Shown: piece by piece, positions 3,433-62,358 of the stretch | Numbering within the stretch: position 1 is the stretch's first letter | Layout: each line of letters opens with the position of its first letter | Source: Candidatus Thorarchaeota archaeon | Lineage (GTDB): Archaea > Asgardarchaeota > Thorarchaeia > Thorarchaeales > Thorarchaeaceae | Direction: 5' to 3' | Length of the DNA: 62,358 nt | Assembly: GCA_050124975.1 (NCBI GenBank) | Contig: JASFEF010000003.1 | Span: 1 to 62,358, forward strand | The notes under the pieces: model-generated | Seen by the model: only the letters and a program-made list of their open reading frames with translations | The model's database searches: none | What the model was told of the DNA's origin: nothing | Made by a program: the position numbers and the translations under genes

Positions 3433-4833
3433 TTAGTTTGGTTTGTAGACTCCCTTGTCACGGGCCCAGGATATTGTTTTAGGATCACAGCGCTTGAGCT
3501 CACGTTCAGGGAAGTCACTTAGTAGGTTCCAACCGATGTCAAGTGTTTGCTCAAATGATCGGTCCTCAAACTCACCCTGATTGATGAATTGGGACTCAAA
3601 CTTGTCTGCAAATTTGAGATACTTCTGGTCTCTTTCTGTCAGTGCCTCAGATCCGACGACTGCCACAAGATCACGAAGGTCTCGACCCTCGGAATAGGCA
3701 TAGTAGAGTTGTGCCTGTATTTCCTTGTGATCAAACCGGGTCATTCCTTCACCAATTCCTTCTTTCATCAATCGACTCAGAGATGGACCAGGATCGATTG
3801 GTGGGAAGATACCTCTCCTATGAAGTCCTCTTCCAACAATTATCTGACCCTCAGTGATGTATCCTGTGAGGTCAGGAATAGGATGAGTCATGTCATCCTG
3901 TGGCATGGAGAGAATTGGCATTTGAGTGATTGTTCCATTCCTTCCATGTATACGACCAGCTCGTTCATAGATTAGACTGAGGTCGGTGTAAAGATAACCA
4001 GGATATCCACGTCGTCCAGGCACCTCAGACCTTGCAGCACTAATCTCACGCAGTGCCTCTGCGTAGTTGGTCATATCTGTGAGAATAACTAGGACGTGCA
4101 TATCAGCCGTATAAGCCAAGTATTCTGCTGCGGTGAGTGCAGCCCTAGGAGTTATAATACGTTCAATGGCAGGGTCATTTGCAAGATTCAGAAAGAGTGT
4201 GGTATGTTCAAGAGCTCCTGTTTCTTCGAATGACTGCATGAAGTATTGAGCCTCAGTGGCTGTAATACCCATCGCACCGAACACAATAGCGAAATCACCC
4301 TCCTCACCGGGAATCTTAGCCTGTCGCACAATCTGTGCAGCTAGTCTATTATGAGGAAGACCGGAGCCTGAAAAGATTGGGAGTTTCTGTCCACGGACCA
4401 GTGTGTTAAGCCCATCAATCGCAGACACACCAGTCTGGATAGGCTGTCGTGGATATTGCCGTGCATAAGGATTGATTGGAGATCCGTAAATATCCCAGTG
4501 GTCCTCTGCAGTCAAGGGAGGTCCTTTGTCTAAGGGATTTCCAGCACCATCGAGTACTCTGCCCAGAATCTCTGATGAAACTGGAAGTTTAAGAGTTTCA
4601 CCCGTGAATCGTACAGCCGTTACATCCGTGTCAAGACCACTTGTACCTTCGAAAACCTGTATAACAGCACGGCCTTTGCCTGTTTCCAGAACTGTGCCTG
4701 TCAGTAACTCTCCAGTAGGAGACCTAATCTTCACGACTTCGTTGAATGATACATCATGCGTATTTTCAGCAACTAGTAACGGGCCACTAACATCAGAAAT
4801 TGTTCTGTACACGATTGAGGATTCTTTGGACAT
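3433..4833 (-). CDS. atpB: A-type (A1Ao) ATP synthase subunit B
   Basis: 466 aa. The N-terminus [16 protein letters not shown], the non-catalytic nucleotide-site region and the C-terminal helical domain are typical of archaeal/V-type B subunits. Confidence 0.95.
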
Positions 4834-4911
4834 TGTAGATACCGCCGTGGTCTTTCAGTATATGCTTCACTGCCGTAAAAGCAGCCGAGTTTTAAGAGTT
4901 ACGAAGTGCAT

Positions 4912-5427
4912 CTACAACCATACAACAACATGCAAGAAAGCAAGAATTGGTGCTAGCATCAATGCTCTAACTATTAGGGACTTGCCTTTTCCAGTAATAT
5001 CGTTTGCATTTGGTGTGAAGTATAGAATAGCTCCCACCAATAGACAGATTGCAGCAACAGCATCACCCAACCAGACTAGTAGGGAGATTAGCTCAACGTC
5101 ACTCATTCCAACAAATTGAAGCCATGCTGTTGTGGCACTCTCTAGCGTGATTGTTTCAACGCCACTGAATTGAGCAAACAGATTGACGATTAAGGGACCA
5201 ACGAAATATAGGACAATTCCCAATCCAACTAAGAACTTTGCCAGCCCATCACCTAGTCCAGTGGCGTATACCATAAACCCGATTAGAACGAAGATTAAGT
5301 AGCCACGGATGGCCAATGCAAAAAAGACATTCAAGATATCACTAACAGTATTGAACCAGTTCTCAGGCATCTGTAGATCAAAGGGAGATTGAAGCATTAG
5401 AAGCACTAGACTGACCATATGGCTCAC
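4912..5427 (-). CDS. Multi-pass membrane protein of unknown function
   Basis: 171 aa with 4-5 hydrophobic helices. Located between atpB and udg on the same strand. Confidence 0.55.
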   Translation of the reverse strand: MSHMVSLVLLMLQSPFDLQMPENWFNTVSDILNVFFALAIRGYLIFVLIGFMVYATGLGDGLAKFLVGLGIVLYFVGPLIVNLFAQFSGVETITLESATTAWLQFVGMSDVELISLLVWLGDAVAAICLLVGAILYFTPNANDITGKGKSLIVRALMLAPILAFLHVVVWL

Positions 5428-8318: not shown

Positions 8319-8810
8319 TTAACCAGTAAATTGAGAAATGAAGTCTTGTTCTTCAACAATTGTCCAGCAATAGAGACATTTCAGCTTCACTGGTGTCTTT
8401 GATACGACTTCATACTTGCTTTGGATTGGCTCTCGCTCCTTGTTTGTCACGCACCTCTGATTTGGACACTGGAAGATGTCAGAGATTATCTCTGGAAGTT
8501 CAACTCTAGTCTTCTTTATGATTTTGAAATCCTCGATAAGGTTGATTGTGGCCTCTGGTGCAACAAGGGCAATCCGAGCAACCTCCTCATCTTCAAGGAA
8601 TCGATGTTCAACCTTCACAATGTCTTTCTTTCCAATCTTTGAGCTGGTTATGTTCATCGCCAATGAAACTATGTTCCCATCTTCGCCAGTAATTCCTAGG
8701 ATTTTAAGAACCTCTAGGGCTTTACCAGCCCTGATATGATCAATCACAGTTCCGTCATGAATTTTGACAATTCTGATCTTTTCAACACCAACTTTCTCAG
8801 ACATGTCCAA
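8319..8810 (-). CDS. pyrI: Aspartate carbamoyltransferase regulatory subunit
   Basis: VKIHDGTVIDHI allosteric-domain motif and the C-terminal zinc domain CPNQRCVTN ... LKCLYC. Confidence 0.9.
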   Translation of the reverse strand: MDMSEKVGVEKIRIVKIHDGTVIDHIRAGKALEVLKILGITGEDGNIVSLAMNITSSKIGKKDIVKVEHRFLEDEEVARIALVAPEATINLIEDFKIIKKTRVELPEIISDIFQCPNQRCVTNKEREPIQSKYEVVSKTPVKLKCLYCWTIVEEQDFISQFTG

Positions 8811-10240
8811 TCACACGCAGGTTCGTCCTATCAATCACCCGGTTTTAGACCTTCCCGTTTCCCGAAACCTAGACATTCCTAGACATTAGAGTCTTGGACT
8901 GATGTTCGGTTCCTGTTTCCTAGAGGTCCGCTCGACAAGTCCTGAGGACCCACCAAGTCTTACATCCTCTCCACAGGCAGTTAGGGTCTCCGGCAAACTG
9001 ACGGTGACCAGATTTAGTGCAGCGTTCAGATCCCTGTCGATCTGTAGCCCACACTGTTCACAAACATACTCTCGTTCCGAGAGCAATAACTCCTTCTTTA
9101 TGTGTCCACAGTGTGAACACAGCTTTGAGGAGGGAAAGGTCCTGGGCACAACGACAAGTTGCGAACCATACCACTGGCACTTGTACTCCAGTTGCCTCCT
9201 AAACTCGTAGAATCCCACATCTCCGATTGCCCGGGCCAGCCTCCGGTTCTTCATCATACCAGACACACACAAGTCCTCAATCACTATCTTGCTGTGGCTC
9301 TTGGCAAGATAGGTGGTTAACTTATGCAGATTATCCTGTCGGATGTTGAAAATTCTCAGGTACATCCTGGCTAAGCGTAACTTTGCTTTCTCGCTGTTCT
9401 TGCTCCCCTTCTTCTTTCGCGAGAGGCTTTTCGAGAACTGTCTGATTTTTTTGAGTTTCCTCCCAAAGGCTCGTGGATTGGCAAAGACAGTTCCATCAGA
9501 GAGTGTGGCCATTGTCTTGACACCAAGGTCCACACCCACCACCTGTCTATCTCTGGGTGTTGGATCAGGAATCTCCTCCTCCACAGTGACTGACACAAAC
9601 CATCGGTCAGCCCTCCTCCTCACTGTAATTGAGAGTATCCTTCCAGAATGATATCTTTCTCGCTTCTCCTTGATTCGGACCTTTCCGATTCGTGGGAGCT
9701 GAATCTTCCTTCCTTCGAACCTGATTGTCCCAGTCAGTCTGAAACTGTCCCTCACTCCCTTTCTCTTGAAGCGGGGAAATCCTATATTTTGTCCCTTCTT
9801 TAATCCTCGATAGAAGTTCTGGAAGGCTCGATGAAGGTCTCTGAGAGCCTCCTGTGGTGCGCACTTCGAACAGTCGTACATCCAAGGGAACTGGGTCTTC
9901 TTCAGACTGTTCAGTAGCTTGTGTTGCTTCATGGCATCAGTGAATCGTTCCTTTCCCTGGTTTGTCTTGATGAGAGTGATGCGTTGTTCGAGACCCCAGT
10001 TGTATGTAAAACGTGCGACTCCTGCATGTTGGTGAAGAGAAGACCTCTGATGGTTGTTGGGGTCGAGCTCGTACCTGTAGGCTTTGATAACCAACATGAG
10101 AGTCAGATGGTAGTGATGATAGTATAATAAAAGGTCATACGGAATTCAGTACATCTCTTAAGACAACAACTTGTTCTATGTTTCAGATTGTCTGAGTTCT
10201 TGGCAGTTGCTATCAAACTCTCCAAGCTTAAAGGCGAAGG
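8811..10240 (-). mobile_element. IS200/IS605-family (IS1341-like) element carrying only tnpB. Ends not defined.
   Basis: tnpB fills 8886-10097. No tnpA lies within the flanks. The boundaries given are simply the flanking intergenic limits. Confidence 0.5.
8886..10097 (-). CDS. tnpB: TnpB (OrfB) RNA-guided endonuclease, IS200/IS605 family
   Basis: N-terminal AYRYELDPN...FTYNWGLEQR. RuvC-I VGVDLGVK, RuvC-II IVIEDL, zinc ribbon CSHCG...CEQCG, RuvC-III DRDLNAALNL. Confidence 0.9.
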   Translation of the reverse strand: MLVIKAYRYELDPNNHQRSSLHQHAGVARFTYNWGLEQRITLIKTNQGKERFTDAMKQHKLLNSLKKTQFPWMYDCSKCAPQEALRDLHRAFQNFYRGLKKGQNIGFPRFKRKGVRDSFRLTGTIRFEGRKIQLPRIGKVRIKEKRERYHSGRILSITVRRRADRWFVSVTVEEEIPDPTPRDRQVVGVDLGVKTMATLSDGTVFANPRAFGRKLKKIRQFSKSLSRKKKGSKNSEKAKLRLARMYLRIFNIRQDNLHKLTTYLAKSHSKIVIEDLCVSGMMKNRRLARAIGDVGFYEFRRQLEYKCQWYGSQLVVVPRTFPSSKLCSHCGHIKKELLLSEREYVCEQCGLQIDRDLNAALNLVTVSLPETLTACGEDVRLGGSSGLVERTSRKQEPNISPRL

Positions 10241-10288
10241 TTGATATGCACAGCAGATGGACCACTCCCAGAAGACGGTGATGGTGTC

Positions 10289-11632
10289 TTGGTTTTAGAA
10301 GGACTTGGAAAATCACTCAACTCAGCTCTAAAGAAGCTCTTCGGCGCAAGTGTCGTAGACGAGGAATTAGTGAAGGAGTTAGTGAAAGACATCCAACGTG
10401 CCCTATTGGTTGCTGACGTGGATGTCAATCTTGTTATGGCAATAACTGAGAGAGTACAAGAACAAGCCCTAGACGAAACCCTGCCAAGAGGTGTATCACG
10501 TCGTGAACATGTAGTCCGTGTTGTTTGGGACACTCTGGCATTTTTCTTGGGAGAGAAGACAGTTCCATTGACAATCAACCCAGGAAAGCCCAACCTTGTT
10601 ATGATGGTGGGCATTCAAGGATCGGGAAAGACAACAACCATCGGGAAACTTGCCCGATACTATCAGAAGCGGGGTATTAAGACGGGAGTGATCTGTGCAG
10701 ACAATTTCAGACCAGGAGCCTATAACCAGTTAAAGCAACTTGCTGAGAAATCAAATGTTCCTTTCTGGGGAGATGAGGAAGAAAAAGACGCCACAAAGCT
10801 AGCAAAGAAAGGCGTTAAAGAGATGCAGAAGAAAGGGATTGAACTCATTCTCCTAGACACTTCGGGTAGGCATAGAGAAGAAACTGGACTCATCAAAGAA
10901 ATGCGCGATATCTCAAAGAGTGTAAAACCCCAAGAGATTGTCTTGGTCATAGATGGCACTCTTGGTCAGCAAGCAGGGGTTCAAGCTGCTGCTTTCCAGA
11001 AGGCAACAGACATTGGATCGATAATAATCACTAAACTTGATGGAGGTGCCAAAGGTGGTGGTGCGCTCTCAGCTGTTGCAGCAACACAAGCGCCAATCAA
11101 GTTCATTGGTGTTGGAGAAGGAATGGATGCCATTGAGCCTTTCAATCCAACAAAGTTTGCTGGACGACTTCTTGGAATGTCAGATATCCGAGGACTCATA
11201 GATAAAGTGCGGGAGGCTCAGATTGAGGTCGAAGAAGACGCTGCGAAGAGGATTATGAAGGGGCAGTTCTCATTGAAGGATATGATGGCCCAGATGAAGC
11301 AGCTCAAGAAGATGGGGCCGATTGGGAAAGTCCTGGAGATGTTAGGCCTTCAATACAAACTCCCTGAAGGAATGGCGGAGATTCAAGAAGAGAACATGAA
11401 GCGATGGGAAGTAATAATGAATTCAATGACAAAGACTGAGTTAGAGGAGCCCAAGTTGATCAAATCGTCAAGGATCAAGCGAATTGCCAAAGGCTCTGGA
11501 ACCTCTCAGAAAGATGTCAGAGACCTCCTCAAGCAACATGAACAAATGAAGAAGATGATGAAGGCGATGGGTAAACAACGCAGAGGCCGGAAAGGAGGAA
11601 TTCCTGGATTTCCAGGTCTTCCAGGTACATGA
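10289..11632 (+). CDS. srp54: Signal recognition particle protein SRP54
   Basis: NG domain GIQGSGKTTT, DTSGR and TKLDG, plus a Met-rich M domain. The ORF opens at 10241, but TTG at 10289 gives the canonical MVLEGLGKSL N-terminus. Confidence 0.95.
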   Translation: MVLEGLGKSLNSALKKLFGASVVDEELVKELVKDIQRALLVADVDVNLVMAITERVQEQALDETLPRGVSRREHVVRVVWDTLAFFLGEKTVPLTINPGKPNLVMMVGIQGSGKTTTIGKLARYYQKRGIKTGVICADNFRPGAYNQLKQLAEKSNVPFWGDEEEKDATKLAKKGVKEMQKKGIELILLDTSGRHREETGLIKEMRDISKSVKPQEIVLVIDGTLGQQAGVQAAAFQKATDIGSIIITKLDGGAKGGGALSAVAATQAPIKFIGVGEGMDAIEPFNPTKFAGRLLGMSDIRGLIDKVREAQIEVEEDAAKRIMKGQFSLKDMMAQMKQLKKMGPIGKVLEMLGLQYKLPEGMAEIQEENMKRWEVIMNSMTKTELEEPKLIKSSRIKRIAKGSGTSQKDVRDLLKQHEQMKKMMKAMGKQRRGRKGGIPGFPGLPGT

Positions 11633-11649
11633 AACGTTCATAGTAGATT

Positions 11650-12111
11650 GTGATTATAGTGCGCCGCTTTCTTGTTAAGTTCGAGAAGTTCCCAATTGAC
11701 AGAAGTTCTGTGAAGTCCGGACAGAACAGCCCTGAAGTGATTATTGCATGTCGCTGCGTCAATGTAGGATTGTTCATTTCAGGAGATCTTCGTCGAGATG
11801 TGATTGTATCATTAGCCATAGGAACTGAAGAAGATTTTCGGGTAGTATCATTTCCAGGACACTCCCTGAGAAGGGTTTCGCCAGATGAGCGATCAATCTC
11901 ATTCTTCCTACTGAAAGCAATGGAAAAAATGCAGAATCTTGAACTAGGAGAAGCATCCATAATGGACAATGGAATCGAGCTTGAAAGGTCATCACTAGAC
12001 GAATTGGTTGAATTATGGGGGTCTAGTGTTATCCAAGTACCTTCAGACAGTCCAGAGAGGTTCATCCTTGATGCCAATCTTTCTGCAGATAGACTAGAAA
12101 ACACACCATGA
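11650..12111 (+). CDS. trmY: SPOUT methyltransferase resembling tRNA (pseudouridine54-N1)-methyltransferase TrmY
   Basis: CRCV..GLFIS..LRRDV and PDERSISFFLLKA match the TrmY (DUF358) signatures as I recall them. The antisense ORF 11529-12104 is rejected. Confidence 0.65.
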   Translation: MIIVRRFLVKFEKFPIDRSSVKSGQNSPEVIIACRCVNVGLFISGDLRRDVIVSLAIGTEEDFRVVSFPGHSLRRVSPDERSISFFLLKAMEKMQNLELGEASIMDNGIELERSSLDELVELWGSSVIQVPSDSPERFILDANLSADRLENTP

Positions 12112-12173
12112 AGAAAGCTTCATAATATCAGCATTCCAATTTTCCAATTGAACCAATCATCGAGTGTGAAACT

Positions 12174-13352
12174 TTGCCTACCAATACATCTCCAGAGTTT
12201 GATAGACAGAGGATAGTTTACGAAGAAACAGAAGACCTCGCTCAGAGGATAGTAGAGCTGGAGAAACTTCTATCTCTTGCACCCAGACATAAGGGTGCAG
12301 AGCGAATGAAGGGTGACTACAGGAAGAAACTAGCGACACTTAAAGCTCAGTTAGAGAAGAAACGAGAACAGGATCGTGCTCGTCGGAGTGGGGGCGGTTC
12401 AGAAGAGGGAGTTGTCAGAAAAGAAGGAGCTGGACAAATCTGTCTCATCGGTGTTACAAACAGTGGAAAATCAACACTCATCAATGCAGTCACCAATGCA
12501 GAGTTTGATGTCGGAGACTATCCCTTCACAACACCGATTCCAACACCAGCCATGTTGACTCTTGAAGACATTAATATTCAGCTCGTAGAACTTCCAGGAG
12601 TCTTTGAAGGCAGCCACGAAGCGGGGATAGGTCGACAAGCTTTAGCAGTGGCTCGAAACTCTGATTGTATTGCCCTAGTTATTGACCTCTCCAAAGATAT
12701 TGATTCACAGATGAACATCATACTTGGGGAATTAAATGCAGCAAGAATTCGTCTTAACAAGGAGAAATCAGCGGTTAGGATTGAGAGAGTGGGACTTGGG
12801 GGCCATATGATCTATGGAGCTCAGAATTTTCAAGGAGACATTGAAGAAGTAAGAGAATATCTTCAAGCTCGCAAAATCACAAACATAATTGTCCGATTCC
12901 AAAAACCAGCAACCTTCGATCAGTTTGTTGATGCCATGGACACTAGTGTTGCATATGTTCGTGCAATGATTGTGGCTACAAAGGGTGACGCAGAGGGATC
13001 TGAAGCGAGATTCAAAGAGCTGGAAGAGAAGTACAGTCACCGGTTTGATATAATCCCTATTTCTGCCGAAAAGAATGAAAATCTCGATGGGATGAGCTGG
13101 TCATTCTATGAACATCTCGACATACTACGGGTCTATACAAAGATACCAGGGAAGAGAAGAGAAGACAAACCAATTGTGCTTCCTGAAGGTTCTGTAGTGG
13201 AGGATGCAGCAGGGAAAGTGCACAAGGAACTATTTGTAGAGAGGTTCCGTTCTGCAGTCATACTCAGGGCTAATGATAAGATAAAGAGAAGAACTGTAGG
13301 CCTTAGCTATCCACTTGAGGATGGAGACGTATTGCAGCTCGCCCATAGGTAG
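12174..13352 (+). CDS. OBG/DRG-family GTPase with a C-terminal TGS domain
   Basis: G1 GVTNSGKST, G2 DYPFTT, G3 ELPG, G4 TKGD. C-terminal TGS-like segment (...EDGDVLQL). N-terminal coiled-coil extension. Confidence 0.85.
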   Translation: MPTNTSPEFDRQRIVYEETEDLAQRIVELEKLLSLAPRHKGAERMKGDYRKKLATLKAQLEKKREQDRARRSGGGSEEGVVRKEGAGQICLIGVTNSGKSTLINAVTNAEFDVGDYPFTTPIPTPAMLTLEDINIQLVELPGVFEGSHEAGIGRQALAVARNSDCIALVIDLSKDIDSQMNIILGELNAARIRLNKEKSAVRIERVGLGGHMIYGAQNFQGDIEEVREYLQARKITNIIVRFQKPATFDQFVDAMDTSVAYVRAMIVATKGDAEGSEARFKELEEKYSHRFDIIPISAEKNENLDGMSWSFYEHLDILRVYTKIPGKRREDKPIVLPEGSVVEDAAGKVHKELFVERFRSAVILRANDKIKRRTVGLSYPLEDGDVLQLAHR

Positions 13353-56582: not shown

Positions 56583-57596
56583 CTATATCTTAACCAGCAC
56601 TTTCACATCTTGATTATCTGGACGGGCCAGTGCCTCAAACCCATCAGTGACTACACTACTCAGCGGTATTATTCTAGTTATCATTGGCGTGGGATTGATA
56701 GTACCTTCTGCGAGAAGCCTAATTGCCTCAGGAAACTCTGCATAGCCAAGGTAACTGAACTGAAGACTTAGTTCATTTAACACGCCTCGCATGAAATCAA
56801 CTTCAACTGGTTCCTCGCTAATCCCAAGAACCAAGATAGTTCCACCTCTCTTCACAAGCTGGAAAGACTCAGCACTGGGGCCAGGTGCACCTGTGCATTC
56901 TACAACCACATCGACCCCCACACCTTGAGTCAGACTCTCAATCCTGAGTGGTAATGGCTCCTTTGATGGATTGATAATCTCATCAGCACCTGCTTCTCTA
57001 GCCATCTCAAGGCGAGTGCTCTGTATTTCAGATGCATATACCACTGAAGCGCCTCGTAATTTTGCCATATGTATACTCAAGATTCCAATTGGTCCAGTGC
57101 CTAGGACAAGTACACTGTCACCAGGTTTGAAGTCAATCAAGTTAAACCCACGAACAGCAATTGATAACGGCTCAACAAAAGCACCTGTCTTGTAGTCAAC
57201 TGTATCGGGCAATTGATGAAGCATGGTCTGTGGTACTGCAACGCGCTCAGCCAGCCCACCATCCATTGAGATGCCAATCATCTGCATGTCATCGCAGACT
57301 GAATACTTCTCAGCCTGACAGAAGGCGCATTTGCCACAGGGAAGGAGAGAGTTAGGCACAACTCTGTCACCCTTCTTCCACTTTGTGACTTCTTTACCGA
57401 CTTCAACAACCTCACCAGAAAACTCGTGTCCCAGTATCAACCCAGCTTCATACATCCCGTACTCCCATGCGCTGAGGTCTGACCCACAAATACCAACGAA
57501 CTTCGGTTCGACAAGAACATCTGTAGGACCAAGATTCGGCTCTGGAACATCCCTCACCTGTATCTCGAGAATGCCCTCAAATACAGCAGCTTTCAT
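56583..57596 (-). CDS. Zinc-dependent medium-chain alcohol/polyol dehydrogenase
   Basis: GICGSDL, GHEFSGEVVEVG, structural-zinc Cys cluster CGKCAFCQ...C and Rossmann motif VLGTGPIG. Confidence 0.9.
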   Translation of the reverse strand: MKAAVFEGILEIQVRDVPEPNLGPTDVLVEPKFVGICGSDLSAWEYGMYEAGLILGHEFSGEVVEVGKEVTKWKKGDRVVPNSLLPCGKCAFCQAEKYSVCDDMQMIGISMDGGLAERVAVPQTMLHQLPDTVDYKTGAFVEPLSIAVRGFNLIDFKPGDSVLVLGTGPIGILSIHMAKLRGASVVYASEIQSTRLEMAREAGADEIINPSKEPLPLRIESLTQGVGVDVVVECTGAPGPSAESFQLVKRGGTILVLGISEEPVEVDFMRGVLNELSLQFSYLGYAEFPEAIRLLAEGTINPTPMITRIIPLSSVVTDGFEALARPDNQDVKVLVKI

Positions 57597-59321
57597 CTAT
57601 TCCTCACCTGGAAGCTGGCAACCCTCAAGCCATACTGAGGCGACAGAGTCAAAATCTGGTGGGACTAGGTTAATGTCTGGATCAATGACGATGTCAAGCA
57701 CAGAGGGTAAACCAGAATCCTTGGCCTTTTGAAGTGCAGGGGCGATGTCTTCAGGTTTTTCCACTCTAAGACCAAAACAACCCATAGCTTCAGCAATCTT
57801 GTCATATCTGACATCAACAAAATCTACTCCAACATACCTCTCCTCGTAGAGACCCTTCTGTCCAGCCTTTATCATTCCGTAAGCCCTATCATTTGCAATA
57901 GCTATGATGAATTGGGTGCCCAATCGTTTAGCAGTTTCAAGTTCTTGCGCATTGAACATGAAAGCCCCATCTCCCGATATCACATAGACATCTTTGTCTG
58001 GATGGGCTAGCTTTGACCCAATTGCATACCCTGTTCCAACACCAAGATGACCGGAGTCAGATGGCCAAAGGAACGTTCTCGGTTCATATATTCTGTTCAA
58101 GTAAATCGCCCAGACTGCTATGTTTCCCCCATCCACAATGGAAATTGCATCCCGAGCGTAGAAGTTACGGACCTCTTGAATCATCCTTAGGGGATGAATT
58201 GGGATCTTGTCCGACTTACCTTGCTCGATGAAATCTACGAGCCAGTTATCTTGGGCTTCTCGGCAGTCAGCCATCGACGGACGGGGCTTCGCCTTTGGCT
58301 TGCTCTTGATATGTTTGAGAAGCTCGGATAGAGTGCTTTTAGCATCTCCAACAATTGCCAAGTCCACAACACGGTTGTGTGCAATCATCTCGGGTGCAAT
58401 ATCAATCTGTATCAATCTTTGATCTGCACAGTCCGCCCAGCCTGGTGCTCGTCCCCAGAAATCGAGGTCTCCAAGACGTCCTCCCACGAGTAAGACAAGG
58501 TCTGACTGACATTGTGCACCGATTGCCCCAAAACTAGCAGGTACAAGTGAGAGTGGATGGTCTTCGGGAATCGCACCTCTTGCAGCAACAGATGTTGTGA
58601 CAGGAGCCTGCAGGTGTTCTGCTATAGCAACGAGTTCTTCAGACGCGTTTGACGCGAGAATACCACTACCTGCATGTAAAAGCGGAAACTCTGCTTTCAA
58701 CAACATCTTGGCAGCCTCAGATATGAGAGTAGGGTCTCCCACTGGTGGTTTGGTCATCCTGTACCTATCAGTAGGCACAATTCCATCTTCCAGTGTATCC
58801 TCCTTACATTTCAAGTAAAGGACGTCTGAAGGGATATCCAAGAAGATTGGTCCTGGTCTTCCTGAAGTTGCCTCCCTGAAAGCCCAATGAACAAGATGTG
58901 GAATTCGTTGCCAATGTGAAACAGTTGCACCCCATTTGGTGATAGGCTTAAACAGACTGAGTTGATCTAGCCCTTGTGTGCTTCCATGGTCTGGGTTTAT
59001 CCGCCAGGACTGATTCTGGGCACAGAGTACAATCATTGGAATACTGTCTGCAAAAGCCGGATACACTCCTGGTACCAAATCAGCTGCACCCGGACCTACT
59101 GTTCCTAGGCAAACACCCGGTTCACCTGTGGTTCGAGCCCATGCGTCTGCAGCGTGTGCTGCCGCTTGTTCATGTCGAAAAGTGATAAAATCGATTCCAT
59201 CGGAGGTATAAACAGAGTCAAGTAAGGGATAAAGTTGGTCTCCAGGGACTCCAAAAACATACCTGACTTTTTCTTGTAAGAGGCACTTTGTCAGAACCTC
59301 ACCGCCAGTCATCATAGTCAT
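57597..59321 (-). CDS. Thiamine-diphosphate-dependent enzyme (acetolactate synthase large subunit / sulfoacetaldehyde acetyltransferase-like)
   Basis: N-terminal Pyr domain (YVFGVPGDQL) and the ThDP-binding motif GDGAFMFNAQELETA...IAIANDRAYG. Confidence 0.9.
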   Translation of the reverse strand: MTMMTGGEVLTKCLLQEKVRYVFGVPGDQLYPLLDSVYTSDGIDFITFRHEQAAAHAADAWARTTGEPGVCLGTVGPGAADLVPGVYPAFADSIPMIVLCAQNQSWRINPDHGSTQGLDQLSLFKPITKWGATVSHWQRIPHLVHWAFREATSGRPGPIFLDIPSDVLYLKCKEDTLEDGIVPTDRYRMTKPPVGDPTLISEAAKMLLKAEFPLLHAGSGILASNASEELVAIAEHLQAPVTTSVAARGAIPEDHPLSLVPASFGAIGAQCQSDLVLLVGGRLGDLDFWGRAPGWADCADQRLIQIDIAPEMIAHNRVVDLAIVGDAKSTLSELLKHIKSKPKAKPRPSMADCREAQDNWLVDFIEQGKSDKIPIHPLRMIQEVRNFYARDAISIVDGGNIAVWAIYLNRIYEPRTFLWPSDSGHLGVGTGYAIGSKLAHPDKDVYVISGDGAFMFNAQELETAKRLGTQFIIAIANDRAYGMIKAGQKGLYEERYVGVDFVDVRYDKIAEAMGCFGLRVEKPEDIAPALQKAKDSGLPSVLDIVIDPDINLVPPDFDSVASVWLEGCQLPGEE

Positions 59322-59419
59322 TTGTTTCTCTCCCTCGTTCTAATCCGAGATACCTCATACCCTATGATGCGGTGTGATTTATCAGTTATGACATAATAAG
59401 CGGATAAAACCTGGGTAAG

Positions 59420-59445
59420 TAGTGCTCCGATCGGGATTCGAACTC
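59420..59445 (-). repeat. Degenerate third copy of the tRNA-Glu 3' end
   Basis: TAGTGCTCCGATCGGGATTCGAACTC matches TGGTGCCCCGACCGGGATTCGAACCC (60245-60270) at 22 of 26 positions, in the same orientation. Confidence 0.55.
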
Positions 59446-59477
59446 TAACTCAAAATAATCAGAAAAGCATATCATAA

Positions 59478-59828
59478 ATGTCCCCATATCTTGTTCTTGA
59501 GGAGCCTGTAACAATGCAAGAGAGTCAAGTGATGTTTGGGTTGAGTGGACCAGGTATTCTTGGGATTGGTTATCTTATTGCTATACTGTTGATTGTAATT
59601 GGATACAAAGAGAAAGAGGATATCCACAAGAGAGTTAGATACATCCGTATGGGAGGTGTTCTATTTGGAATAATGATTATTGTAACCGGGCTTACTGTGT
59701 ACGGATACCTAGTAACAGTGATGTTTTTGGTTATGACTCTTCAAGATGTATTCATTCTGGCTTTGGTTTCATCCATTGGTGGCTTGATTATAGGAATCTC
59801 ATGCTATTATCCAATCAGTCAACAATAA
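59478..59828 (+). CDS. Small membrane protein (cassette ORF)
   Basis: 116 aa with three hydrophobic helices. Its stop lies 2 nt before the 31-nt tRNA-derived repeat. Confidence 0.45.
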   Translation: MSPYLVLEEPVTMQESQVMFGLSGPGILGIGYLIAILLIVIGYKEKEDIHKRVRYIRMGGVLFGIMIIVTGLTVYGYLVTVMFLVMTLQDVFILALVSSIGGLIIGISCYYPISQQ

Positions 59829-59830
59829 GA

Positions 59831-59861
59831 TGGTGCCCCGACCGGGATTCGAACCCGGGTC
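59831..59861 (-). repeat. Perfect 31-nt copy of the tRNA-Glu 3' end (att-like)
   Basis: TGGTGCCCCGACCGGGATTCGAACCCGGGTC is identical to 60245-60275. It covers CCA, the discriminator, the 3' acceptor strand, the T arm and 3 nt of the variable region. Confidence 0.9.
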
Positions 59862-60160
59862 TAGATTTTATTGCTTTTATGAAACTGAGACTTCTTCAAT
59901 CGGTTTAGAATGATTACAATCCTTGAACGGATGATGTAGTTTAGTGGGATAGTCAAGACCTTGTATGAACGTATTTGACTCGGTGTTTCAAATACTCTTA
60001 TACTGGCGGCGAGTGCGAATATTATAATCCCACCATATAGTAAGAGACCGAAGAACATTGCTACCCAGACCATACGAAGAGCGATTAATTGTGTATACAG
60101 AATAAATGCTGAAACTACAATAACGAAGATAGCCCCTATTTCATAATCCAGCCGACTCAT
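59861..60160 (-). CDS. Small membrane protein (cassette ORF)
   Basis: 99 aa with two or three hydrophobic helices and a basic tail. Its stop codon abuts the 31-nt repeat. Confidence 0.4.
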   Translation of the reverse strand: MSRLDYEIGAIFVIVVSAFILYTQLIALRMVWVAMFFGLLLYGGIIIFALAASIRVFETPSQIRSYKVLTIPLNYIIRSRIVIILNRLKKSQFHKSNKI

Positions 60161-60244
60161 TTAGTATCTCCAACTAGAGATGAAGTTGCATTAGATGATG
60201 TTTATGTTTTTCCAAAAAGCGTAAACTCTTGAATGAAAATAGAG

Positions 60245-60322
60245 TGGTGCCCCGACCGGGATTCGAACCCGGGTCATAGGGTCGAAAACCCTAGATGCTG
60301 GGCCTGGCTACACTATCGGGGC
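60245..60322 (-). tRNA. tRNA-Glu (anticodon UUC), CCA encoded
   Basis: Manual cloverleaf on the minus strand: acceptor GCCCCGA/TCGGGGC, D arm GTGT..GCAT, anticodon arm TAGGG-TTTTCGA-CCCTA (anticodon TTC), T arm CCGGG-TTCGAAT-CCCGG, discriminator A, CCA. Confidence 0.9.
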
Positions 60323-60381: not shown

Positions 60382-60735
60382 CTAGGAAGCAGTTCGAATT
60401 AAGGTGTCCTTGGAGGACTCAGATGCTCGTATTTGATGCACATCACGTAGAACAGATTTGACACTCCTTCTTCCATATCTGAGGAAACCGCTTGAAACTG
60501 CCTGAAGCAGGAATGACCGCAGATCACTTGACTCTGGGACTCCTGAAATCTTGCAGGATCCAGCAACAAGTGTCGGTACAACTAAGATACCATATGCCTC
60601 AGCAATTCGGTATTGTCGCTCAACATCAACCTCGTAGATGTTCTGTTCAGTCCCTAGAGCCTCACTTTCTTCCTCTAGCATTGATTTGAGCACACCACAC
60701 CATGCGCATTGGTCTGAGGTGAATAGTAGAATCAT
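60382..60735 (-). CDS. Thioredoxin/glutaredoxin-fold protein
   Basis: MILLFTSDQCAWCGVLK (CxxC) ... VVPTLV (cis-Pro region). The internal ATG at 60735 is preferred over the ORF start at 60882. Confidence 0.7.
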   Translation of the reverse strand: MILLFTSDQCAWCGVLKSMLEEESEALGTEQNIYEVDVERQYRIAEAYGILVVPTLVAGSCKISGVPESSDLRSFLLQAVSSGFLRYGRRSVKSVLRDVHQIRASESSKDTLIRTAS

Positions 60736-60900
60736 GGAATCCGCACCTAGGAGTTGCCTCGTAGTTGCTCTGATAGAATATAAAGTCCGAAAAAGTACGA
60801 CACTAAAACAGTCCTTCAAAACAACTTCTTGACAGTCAGAATACTCTGAATCGTTCCCAAATCGTGTTGCCTTGACTGACAATCAGAAACCATTCGCAAC

Positions 60901-60943: not shown

Positions 60944-61050
60944 GGGCCCGTAGCTCAGCTTGGTAGAGCAGCAGGCTCATAACCTGTATGTCCGAAGACT
61001 TCCTTCGGCCAGGGGATCGGTCGTGCGTTCAAATCGCGCCGGGCCCACCA
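60944..61050 (+). tRNA. tRNA with anticodon CAU (elongator Met or Ile2), CCA encoded, with a ~30-nt intron-like insert in the variable region
   Basis: Acceptor GGGCCCG/CGGGCCC, D arm GCTC-AGCTTGGTA-GAGC, anticodon arm GCAGG-CTCATAA-CCTGT, T arm GTGCG-TTCAAAT-CGCGC, discriminator A, CCA. There are 35 nt between the anticodon stem and the T stem, where 5 are expected. Confidence 0.85.
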
Positions 61051-61114
61051 TTTTCTAGAATTAGATAGGACCATAAAAGCCTCTCATCCAACGGTATTTT
61101 GAGAGAGTTGGGAG

Positions 61115-61867
61115 GTGGATTCATACTACCAATCATATTTACCATTGAGCCGAGAGAAGCGGATTACAAGTCCTAGAAAGAAGAAAAAGCCAACTGGACT
61201 CCCCAAACATGCAATATGTAGACCTTTGCTTATCGTGCCATTACCCCCTCTCAAAAACCTTAGAGGTGGGCGTAATTCATCCAAACTTGTTTGGTATAGA
61301 TGTGATTTTTGTGGTGCATATTTTCATACAAAAACAAGTAGGATGAAGAAAAGCGAATATGGGTTCTGTAGTAAGAAGTGTCAAGCGAAATTTCATAGTG
61401 AACGACTTAAGGGTCATAGGATATCAAAGAAAACAAGACAGAAAATTTCTGACACTAAACGAGGAATAGAAAGGATAACTGAACCAAAAACTGATGATGG
61501 TTCTACATGGAGAGATTTCTCATCAAATCCAAAGAATCAGTTATGGTATAAAAAAGCGACAGAGTTAGCTACCTCTTATCGTGATACGGGGGAGTGGAAA
61601 CGAAAGTCAAAGGAGATTAAGAAACTAGATAATTACACCTGTCAAGGATGTGGAATTGAGAGGAGAGAAGTAGGTCAAATTGGAGTTCATCATGTGAAGA
61701 AACTTGCAGACTGGATCTATGAAGAAAACAACCCAAGTGAGTATCCAGATGAATTTCTTGTCACTCTATGTCATAGATGTCATACACATACTGAAGCTCA
61801 ACCCGATGAATACAAGTGGCCAATTTCTGCAACAGGAAATGAAACGATAGCGGGGTACCCTAGATAA
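61115..61867 (+). CDS. HNH endonuclease with a NUMOD3-like motif and an FCS-type zinc finger (homing-endonuclease-like)
   Basis: HNH core CQGCG...VHHV...N...LCHRCH. NUMOD3-like LKGHRISKKTRQKISDTKRG. CDFCG...FCSKKC zinc finger. GTG start within GGGAGGTG. Confidence 0.8.
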   Translation: MDSYYQSYLPLSREKRITSPRKKKKPTGLPKHAICRPLLIVPLPPLKNLRGGRNSSKLVWYRCDFCGAYFHTKTSRMKKSEYGFCSKKCQAKFHSERLKGHRISKKTRQKISDTKRGIERITEPKTDDGSTWRDFSSNPKNQLWYKKATELATSYRDTGEWKRKSKEIKKLDNYTCQGCGIERREVGQIGVHHVKKLADWIYEENNPSEYPDEFLVTLCHRCHTHTEAQPDEYKWPISATGNETIAGYPR

Positions 61868-61885
61868 ATCGCGCCGGGCCCACCA
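61866..61885 (+). repeat. 20-nt direct repeat of the tRNA(CAU) 3' end
   Basis: AAATCGCGCCGGGCCCACCA is identical to 61031-61050. It overlaps the stop codon of the HNH gene. Confidence 0.9.
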
Positions 61886-61889
61886 CTTC

Positions 61890-62348
61890 TTACTGACGAT
61901 GTTTCTCACGGATTCCTTCTATTTCTGCTTGAATTTGCTCATAATGTGCAACCAGTTCAGGTTTACCAGATTGAATAGCCTGAGATTTTGCCTGGTCGAG
62001 AAGTGCAAGGAGAGTAGATGCTTCTTTGACAATCTCTAGACCAAGCTTTTGCTGTTTCTTCGGTTTTTCGTTATACTTGGCGATTGTCTTCGCGAGGCTT
62101 TGTCTTTCTTTTGCAATTTTCTTATCCATATTCAAGTGTATCATCTTGTCCAGTGTATCAAGAGGATCTTCTTCAGCCTCAGTAACTGGAGTTGGTTTCT
62201 CCTGTTGAGCTGAGAGTCCAAGAACTCGCTTCAAATCATCTCGGAAGAAGCTGATTAGGAACCCTATGAAGATGACAACAACACCTGCAAGAAAGCCCTC
62301 TATGCTAGATAATAGGAAAGCGATGATACTTACAATGATGAGAATCAC
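61890..62348 (-). CDS. Hypothetical protein with an N-terminal TM helix and a coiled-coil tail (N-terminus may lie beyond the window)
   Basis: 152-aa ORF with a GTG start at 62348. The frame stays open to the window edge. Confidence 0.45.
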   Translation of the reverse strand: MILIIVSIIAFLLSSIEGFLAGVVVIFIGFLISFFRDDLKRVLGLSAQQEKPTPVTEAEEDPLDTLDKMIHLNMDKKIAKERQSLAKTIAKYNEKPKKQQKLGLEIVKEASTLLALLDQAKSQAIQSGKPELVAHYEQIQAEIEGIREKHRQ

Positions 62349-62358
62349 TATGAGTGCG

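Follow-up and report, generated by a model that had tools for sequence, protein, structure and literature searches.

Behind a tRNA gene of a Candidatus Thorarchaeota archaeon lies a short piece of DNA that ends in a copy of the tRNA's own 3' end and encodes only a putative HNH nuclease. Is this piece of DNA mobile, and if so, is it the nuclease that moves it? The window analyzed here, 62,358 nucleotides long, is the complete contig C3 of a metagenome-assembled genome (MAG) of 289 contigs and 3.08 Mb; the NCBI names of homologous proteins likewise assign the lineage to Thorarchaeota. An earlier note on this DNA had proposed that the tRNA(CAU) gene in the window is the target of a minimal mobile cassette carrying a homing-endonuclease-like protein, or that it adjoins the remnant of a larger integrated element. 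We compared the locus with related genomes (G-numbers; 28 counted in the genus set) and with individual loci (L-numbers). Positions 61051-61885 are, in our reading, a discrete and horizontally mobile one-gene cassette, the newest, tRNA-proximal unit of a Thorarchaeota array between tRNA(CAU) and a ZIP zinc-transporter gene; we give this reading a rough probability of 0.7. Its core features are:

60944..61050, + strand: tRNA(CAU) gene, the docking site (Rfam, ARAGORN with introns allowed, comparison of genus alleles)
~60988-61017: 30-nt intron-like insertion in the variable region of tRNA(CAU), seen against intron-less alleles of sister species
61031..61050, + strand: proximal repeat copy, attL-like (exact 20-mer)
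61051..61885, + strand: inserted cassette, 835 bp (empty sites; alignments to L096 and L097)
61115..61867, + strand: orphan HNH nuclease gene, 250 aa (Pfam, PADLOC, homologue alignment)
61866..61885, + strand: distal repeat copy, attR-like; the DNA beyond is collinear with empty sites of relatives (junction strings)

The duplication of the tRNA 3' end is exact, as the earlier note had stated. The 20-mer AAATCGCGCCGGGCCCACCA occurs in identical copies at 61031-61050 and 61866-61885, no such repeat is expected by chance (zero in 100 shuffles), and the match between the copies extends to 22 of 23 nt. Further copies, which the note had suggested looking for, were not found, and these two remain the only ones in the 3.08-Mb assembly. 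The proximal copy spans the last four bases of the T-loop, the 3' strands of the T-stem and the acceptor stem, the discriminator base and CCA. It belongs to a tRNA gene that matches Rfam RF00005 with 57.9 bits and has its CCA encoded. ARAGORN called this gene, as tRNA-Met(cat) at 60944-61050, only with introns allowed, because of the 30-nt insertion in the variable region. Only one long open reading frame (ORF), 61115-61867, occurs in the 815 bp that separate the copies, which thus do encode only the 250-aa protein. The last two bases of its TAA stop codon (61865-61867) already belong to the distal repeat, an overlap that had also been described before. In the 835-bp cassette, a leader of 64 nt precedes the HNH ORF, and the distal repeat closes the unit; no terminal inverted repeats are present at its ends.

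The stretch 61051-61885 is a genuine insertion. In G004, the corresponding sequence reads TCGTGCGTTCAAATCGCGCCGGGCCCACCA followed directly by CTTCTTACTG, i.e., the left half of the first window copy joined to the flank of the second, and this flank is 86.9% identical to that of the window over 472 nt. The search for empty sites proposed in the earlier note was equally successful in G019, G022, G006, and G007, which show the same layout with the HNH cassette missing, and G001, G002, and G024 carry no cassette whatsoever behind tRNA(CAU). Just 2 of the 28 genus genomes contain a full-length homologue of the HNH gene, so that the alternative of a conserved, syntenic chromosomal gene fails.

Two further copies of the unit, L096 (ENA ERZ23498365) and L097 (Logan SRR14699978), were reached through the 90% cluster of the HNH protein. 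In L096 the cassette is 92.9% identical over all 835 bp without a gap and the tRNA is 100% identical, whereas the upstream backbone gene, which encodes a thioredoxin-like protein, is only 76.9% identical and the DNA past the distal 20-mer differs. The L097 cassette is 96.9% identical, and the alignment stops exactly at window position 61885, with a different flank beyond. Between the window and L096, the HNH gene shows a synonymous divergence (dS) of 0.18, as against saturation in the backbone gene (proportion of synonymous differences, pS, 0.81). The identical ends and the low dS next to a saturated backbone show that the trimmed cassette itself spread into the same slot of diverged lineages. 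It has exact boundaries and has been transferred horizontally, which bears out the proposal of a minimal mobile cassette: the same 835-bp unit, with the same ends, stands in two other metagenomes before different downstream DNA. Among the three copies of the cassette, the ratio of nonsynonymous to synonymous divergence (dN/dS) of the HNH gene is 0.19-0.58, and the orphan gene is therefore still constrained.

This unit does not stand alone. In 20 loci tRNA(CAU) is followed by the conserved ZIP gene (Pfam E=3e-33), at distances from 101 nt in G001, without any cassette, to 10.1 kb in G042, and the gap is filled mostly by one-gene units, each closed by a 20-24-nt copy of the tRNA 3' end. Other cargo at tRNA(CAU) includes a radical SAM gene (G021, G015), an FAD/GGR-like reductase (G018, G007), and secreted or membrane proteins (G011, G016, G042). 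The radical SAM cassettes of G021 and G015 are 98.3% identical, as against 80.4% for the DNA upstream of the tRNA, which indicates that a nuclease-free cassette transfers too. Three nested presence/absence differences all fall into the tRNA-proximal slot. They concern the HNH unit (this genome versus G004), a 152-aa unit (G007 versus G018, after which the downstream DNA aligns at 89% over 4.3 kb), and the radical SAM unit (G021 versus G009 and G014). The order of units varies, with joins exactly at the fragment ends: the HNH unit precedes the 152-aa unit in the window, the ZIP gene in L096, and in L097 a unit that follows the radical SAM gene in G015.

The earlier note had suspected that an element might continue past the second repeat. 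What continues there is the array, whose next unit runs to the end of the window:

61890..62358, - strand: older cassette with a gene for a 152-aa membrane/coiled-coil protein (61890-62348), cut by the contig end

In G004, G019, G006, and G007 the 152-aa gene lies directly behind the tRNA and is trailed, at +605 to +690, by a degenerate fragment of the tRNA(CAU) 3' end, which marks it as an older cassette; our contig ends before this fragment. An 80%-identical copy of the gene resides in a tRNA-Ala array of G011, so that cargo can evidently switch arrays. A class-wide pattern count of tRNA(CAU) fragments was abandoned as unspecific, since with one mismatch the pattern also matches other tRNAs.

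The HNH protein appears to combine a zinc finger of the Cys4 type with a NUMOD3-like helix and, at its C-terminus, an HNH domain. This assignment, made in the earlier note, stands in part. Six homologues share the Cys/His residues (CxxC...HH...CxxCH) and the ISDTKxGI residues without exception, and PADLOC ZorE HNH profiles match the C-terminal domain with E=6e-6 to 1.5e-6. The Pfam matches, on the other hand, all stay below the curated cut-offs: HNH with E=0.0028 and 18.2 bits against 21.4, zf-FCS with E=0.042, and NUMOD3 with E=0.056, the latter for the excised segment only. The AlphaFold2 model of the protein is poor (pLDDT, the predicted local distance difference test score, 52), and in IMG/VR viral contigs there was one weak domain match only.

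The closest relatives of the gene reveal where it comes from. Three of the five closest homologues (57-61% identity) form the last gene of a tight four-gene operon, with products of ~90 aa, ~326 aa, and ~570 aa preceding the HNH protein. The HNH gene is the fourth gene in L068, L071, and L072, in G021:C435 (50% identical), and in the more divergent L093. The four-gene operon loci are:

L071, 3019-6780
L068, 3064-6777
L072, 2967-6771
L065, 1376-5155
L093, 6730-10526

Operons with close homologues adjoin tRNA(CAU) or its fragment, among genes of the defense systems GmrSD, Hachiman, and HD-CE; the exception is the G021 copy, which lies beside tRNA-Lys-type fragments. More distant operons end in homologous nucleases and are located in a tRNA-Leu array or away from tRNAs. 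This Thorarchaeota-specific operon thus travels as cassette cargo among defense genes, and some genomes hold several copies of it. Its second gene encodes a PriS-like primase (profile against Sulfolobus PriS 1zt2, E=3e-7). The third gene forms 53 clusters, almost all from Thorarchaeota, with an invariant CxCxxC...H motif. The motif is reminiscent of tRNA-guanine transglycosylases, a likeness that no search supported. The third protein belongs to no Pfam family and is absent from IMG/VR viral contigs; its model is confident (pLDDT 84), with weak TIM-barrel neighbors only and no PDB match at E<=1e-3. For the operon partners no PADLOC or Pfam match was obtained. In L072, a Hachiman-type pair (HamA and a DEAD/ResIII helicase, 8541-12718) sits exactly between two tRNA(CAU) 3' fragments, i.e., a known defense system is packaged as a cassette as well.

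In two other loci a solo HNH gene directly behind tRNA(CAU) has kept pieces both of the operon leader and of the tail of the third gene, with different deletion junctions. The copy in the window retains only ~20 nt of this tail and the 64-nt leader, and operon genes 1-3 are absent from this genome. The HNH gene is therefore the orphaned last member of the four-gene operon, trimmed on both sides down to its ORF. Also the second proposal of the earlier note, a remnant of a larger element, has thus proved right in that the unit was trimmed from a four-gene cassette of ~3.9 kb or more. Solo HNH genes arose by at least two independent deletions and are under purifying selection. Within the cassette, the HNH gene is best read as cargo rather than motor.

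Three other explanations of the locus have to be weighed against a mobile cassette that carries its nuclease as cargo. That the repeat is a chance match or an assembly artefact deserves practically no weight: the MAG is fragmented and the contig ends 473 nt past the distal repeat, but no match is expected by chance, a repeat of 20 nt is shorter than the assembler word length, and the identical architecture was found in independent assemblies from three other samples (ENA, Logan, JGI). A more substantial alternative is that the unit is an inert scar, a decayed remnant of a larger, integrase-bearing element which no longer moves as such, comparable to the cis-mobilizable elements (CIMEs). The unit does descend by deletion from the larger four-gene cassette, integrase-bearing elements exist in the genus, one of them next to a tRNA 3' fragment (G019:C202), and decay after serial integration has been documented both for tycheposons and for CIMEs derived from integrative and conjugative or integrative and mobilizable elements (ICEs, IMEs). 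A scar would hardly be expected, however, to occur in its trimmed 835-bp form with identical ends in three populations, before different downstream DNA, nor to be far younger (dS 0.18) than the saturated backbones around it; moreover, the parent four-gene cassettes lack an integrase, too. We therefore consider this explanation improbable.

The homing-endonuclease engine implied by the earlier note raises the remaining alternative, a selfish cassette. In cassette-free genomes the HNH protein would cut tRNA(CAU), e.g., in the T-loop, or the junction with its trailer, and repair from a donor copy would install the cassette, with the tRNA as left and the 20-nt distal copy as right region of homology. 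The zinc finger, NUMOD3-like helix, and HNH domain resemble those of free-standing homing nucleases, even if all three Pfam matches (HNH, NUMOD3, FCS) are sub-threshold. The distribution of the gene is sporadic, with full-length copies in 2 of 28 genomes; its cassette moved horizontally into the same site, and on its left the repeat begins within the T-loop. The finding that close homologues always reside in tRNA(CAU) arrays also agrees with homing, as does the retention of solo HNH genes after independent deletions, at a dN/dS of 0.19-0.58. Against homing, the protein is ancestrally the product of gene 4 of an operon that is also found in tRNA-Leu and tRNA-Lys-type arrays or off tRNAs, and arrays occur at many different tRNAs, also in genomes that lack this HNH gene. 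Mobility does not depend on the nuclease gene, since nuclease-free units such as the radical SAM cassette share the slot and the same kind of repeat and are transferred (98.3% identity versus 80.4% in the flanks). Furthermore, the 20-nt duplication rebuilds the target together with the original flank. Because it re-creates the junction between tRNA end and flank, the insertion would not obviously protect the site, whereas classical homing would presumably destroy this junction. Taken together, the engine role implied for the nuclease is not supported, and we regard homing as unlikely.

If the unit is a mobile cassette, how does it enter? The arrays suggest that cassettes would come in through DNA recombination at the T-loop-to-CCA segment of the tRNA gene. 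The tRNA would be left intact, a 20-24-nt copy of its 3' end would mark the far side of each unit, and new units would displace older ones from the tRNA, with the older copies decaying. In L068 and L093 the repeated block extends into the tRNA trailer, which argues for DNA-level recombination at the gene and against priming by mature tRNA. The reaction could be the work of a tyrosine integrase that transient elements supply in trans and that crosses over in the T-loop or 3' end. It could also proceed through short homology, with the tRNA as left arm and its fragments as right arm; both short-homology recombination and a helper role for nucleases are serious alternatives. PF00589 (Phage_integrase) has no match in this genome and none in 19 of the 28 genus genomes, so that in these even a chromosome resolvase of the XerA type escapes detection. 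The remaining nine genomes have matches, mostly on contigs of 1.4-6 kb, and only the one in G019:C202 adjoins a tRNA fragment. On these grounds an integrase was rejected as the engine.

Several points weigh against our reading of the cassette. No recombinase is tied to the arrays. The genomes are MAGs, in which integrase-bearing elements may be unbinned. The distal fragments match the resident T-stem in G007 and are hybrid or foreign in G021, G015, G042, L071, and L085, and not all of these cases fit a simple attP x attB scheme in which the crossover lies in the T-loop. An attempt to map crossovers from T-stem variants was given up, as the patterns contradict each other. In addition, all close HNH homologues (57-61% identity) lie in tRNA(CAU) arrays, and a specific link between the HNH protein and tRNA(CAU) is therefore possible. 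Its retention as a solo gene under purifying selection likewise hints at a function of its own.

Beyond this locus, we tentatively propose for Thorarchaeota a gene-capture system that resembles integrons, evolved independently of them, and uses the T-loop-to-CCA ends of ordinary tRNA genes as docking sites. As a whole, we hold this proposal to be possible yet rather doubtful. It combines one-gene cassettes that carry a 20-30-nt mimic of a tRNA end and are swapped between lineages and stacked newest-first with an enzyme that would be neither cassette-encoded nor a recognizable tyrosine recombinase. The activity would come either from a host recombinase or from RadA-type short-homology recombination, for which the tRNA and its fragment would serve as portable homology arms. 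Orphan nucleases like the HNH protein may raise transfer by breaking empty sites.

The tRNA(CAU) gene itself is variable within the genus. In a comparison with loci L009-L013 and L029, the 30-nt insertion is present in G000, G023, G007, G002, G015, and G011 and missing from other species, while G003 carries a ~29-nt insertion in the anticodon stem instead of the variable region. G015 and G021 have T-arm and cassette in common and differ in the presence of the intron. Nucleotides 1-44 of the tRNA are almost invariant genus-wide, whereas the T-stem (window 61020-61050, compared with L009-L027) varies and exists in at least five fully compensated versions: GTGCG/CGCGC, AGGGG/CCCCT, TCGAG/CTCGA, GGGCG/CGCCC, and GGGAG/CTCCC. 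These versions give the impression that the gene has repeatedly had its 3' part replaced. A 5' fragment of tRNA(CAU), nt 1-53, occurs in L059 (G012:C252, oriented 4590-5158), 491 bp upstream of the intact gene, as a mirror image of the usual layout with 3' fragments. Like the window, which ends at 62358, the contigs G019:C112, G022:C379, G013:C6, G008:C344, and G041:C8 end in or within a few hundred bases of tRNA(CAU). Such breaks would be expected if the populations are heterogeneous and the assembly graphs branch there.

On the other side of tRNA(CAU) lies a second, divergent tRNA gene with its own cassettes:

60382..60882, - strand: gene for a thioredoxin-like protein, conserved backbone between the two tRNA genes (Pfam Thioredoxin_3 E=4e-6)
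60245-60322, - strand: tRNA-Glu(UUC), 0.6 kb upstream of tRNA(CAU) and divergent from it
59420..60322, - strand: tRNA-Glu array of two cassettes, 414 and 411 bp (copies of the tRNA 3' end)

The 31-nt 3' end of tRNA-Glu has a perfect second copy at 59831-59861 and a degenerate third copy near 59420, and the two cassettes contain one small membrane-protein ORF each, 59861-60160 (- strand) and 59478-59828 (+ strand). Downstream of tRNA-Glu, the window region 57000-60244 is unrelated over its first 0.9-1.4 kb to G007, G018, G006, G042, G024, and G004, and this second tRNA is therefore also a variable site. With cassettes at both genes, the description of the divergent pair as an insertion hotspot is well founded. 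In the whole genome, at least 14 cassettes, 0.4-2.2 kb long and almost always with a single ORF, are distributed over about nine tRNA loci. The backbone between tRNA-Glu and tRNA(CAU) is syntenic in nine relatives. The homologue of the 166-aa thioredoxin-like ORF in L096 begins at an internal Met (MILLFTSDQC...), the N-terminal 49 residues being without counterpart, and the true start of the gene is probably this internal Met.

The locus thus provides a clean and dated example: a unit of 835 bp, delimited to the base, has recently passed between lineages whose neighboring genes are saturated with synonymous changes, and has done so at a docking site where other small cassettes take up anything between zero and 10 kb. 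Should an enzyme drive the process, a site-specific recombination system is still to be discovered; should short homology drive it, tRNA ends would be universal portable landing pads. The analysis also reveals a Thorarchaeota-specific four-gene operon that encodes a PriS-like primase and an HNH nuclease together with a novel TIM-barrel-like protein.

In the literature searched, we found no description of cassettes of this kind in Thorarchaeota or other Asgard archaea. Work by Williams from 2002 reportedly assigned a T-loop/3'-end sublocation within tRNA genes to one class of tyrosine integrases, and the identity block here likewise extends from T-loop to CCA. Free-standing HNH homing endonucleases with NUMOD modules, of the I-HmuI type, also combine an HNH core with small DNA-binding modules, are sporadically distributed, and show insertion polymorphism. 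In the present case, however, the HNH domain is C-terminal, the gene descends from an operon, the insertion comes with a 20-nt duplication, and nuclease-free neighbors behave alike. The C-terminal HNH domain and the location of homologous operons among defense genes recall ZorE, the HNH effector of type II Zorya. Yet this similarity is confined to the domain level, and the partners are a PriS-like primase and a TIM-barrel-like protein. With only the HNH domain matching and ZorA and ZorB lacking, membership in Zorya type II was rejected. A casposon or DDE-type transposon was likewise dismissed, as there are no terminal inverted repeats and the sole ORF is the HNH gene.

Integrons share with the arrays promoter-poor, tightly packed one-ORF units in which the copy of the site can overlap the stop codon, as well as insertion next to the platform and combinatorial orders that differ between strains. 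They differ in possessing IntI, an attI/Pc platform, and attC hairpins; here the genome has no PF00589 match, a tRNA gene serves as platform and a tRNA 3' fragment as site, and no inverted repeat is present at the cassette ends. Moreover, ORFs lie on either strand and each genome has many platforms. CIMEs, which keep attL and attR without genes for integration and transfer and are described, along with the accretion of ICE- and IME-derived islands, from streptococci (PMC5704250), resemble the unit in exactly this combination. Unlike CIMEs, which are decayed ICEs or IMEs with a related resident integrase known, it stems from a parent cassette that is also integrase-less, shows no visible relation to an ICE, and resides in an Asgard archaeon. 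As for tRNA-targeted elements in general, the locus has the direct repeats (20 of 20 nt) and the unoccupied site, and lacks an integrase of its own, the only ORF being the HNH gene. The tycheposons of Prochlorococcus integrate serially at tRNAs, newer ones pushing older ones inward and leaving scattered partial tRNAs (bioRxiv 10.1101/2020.12.28.424599). In contrast to them, the units described here are 0.4-2 kb in size, mostly contain one gene, occupy many tRNA loci per genome, and have no integrase, excisionase, or replication gene in or beside them. What they have in common with tycheposons and other tRNA-targeted elements is insertion at the 3' end of an intact tRNA with a direct copy of its 3' part as flank and, as in tycheposon islands, newest-first stacking with partial tRNAs in a variable island between conserved genes.

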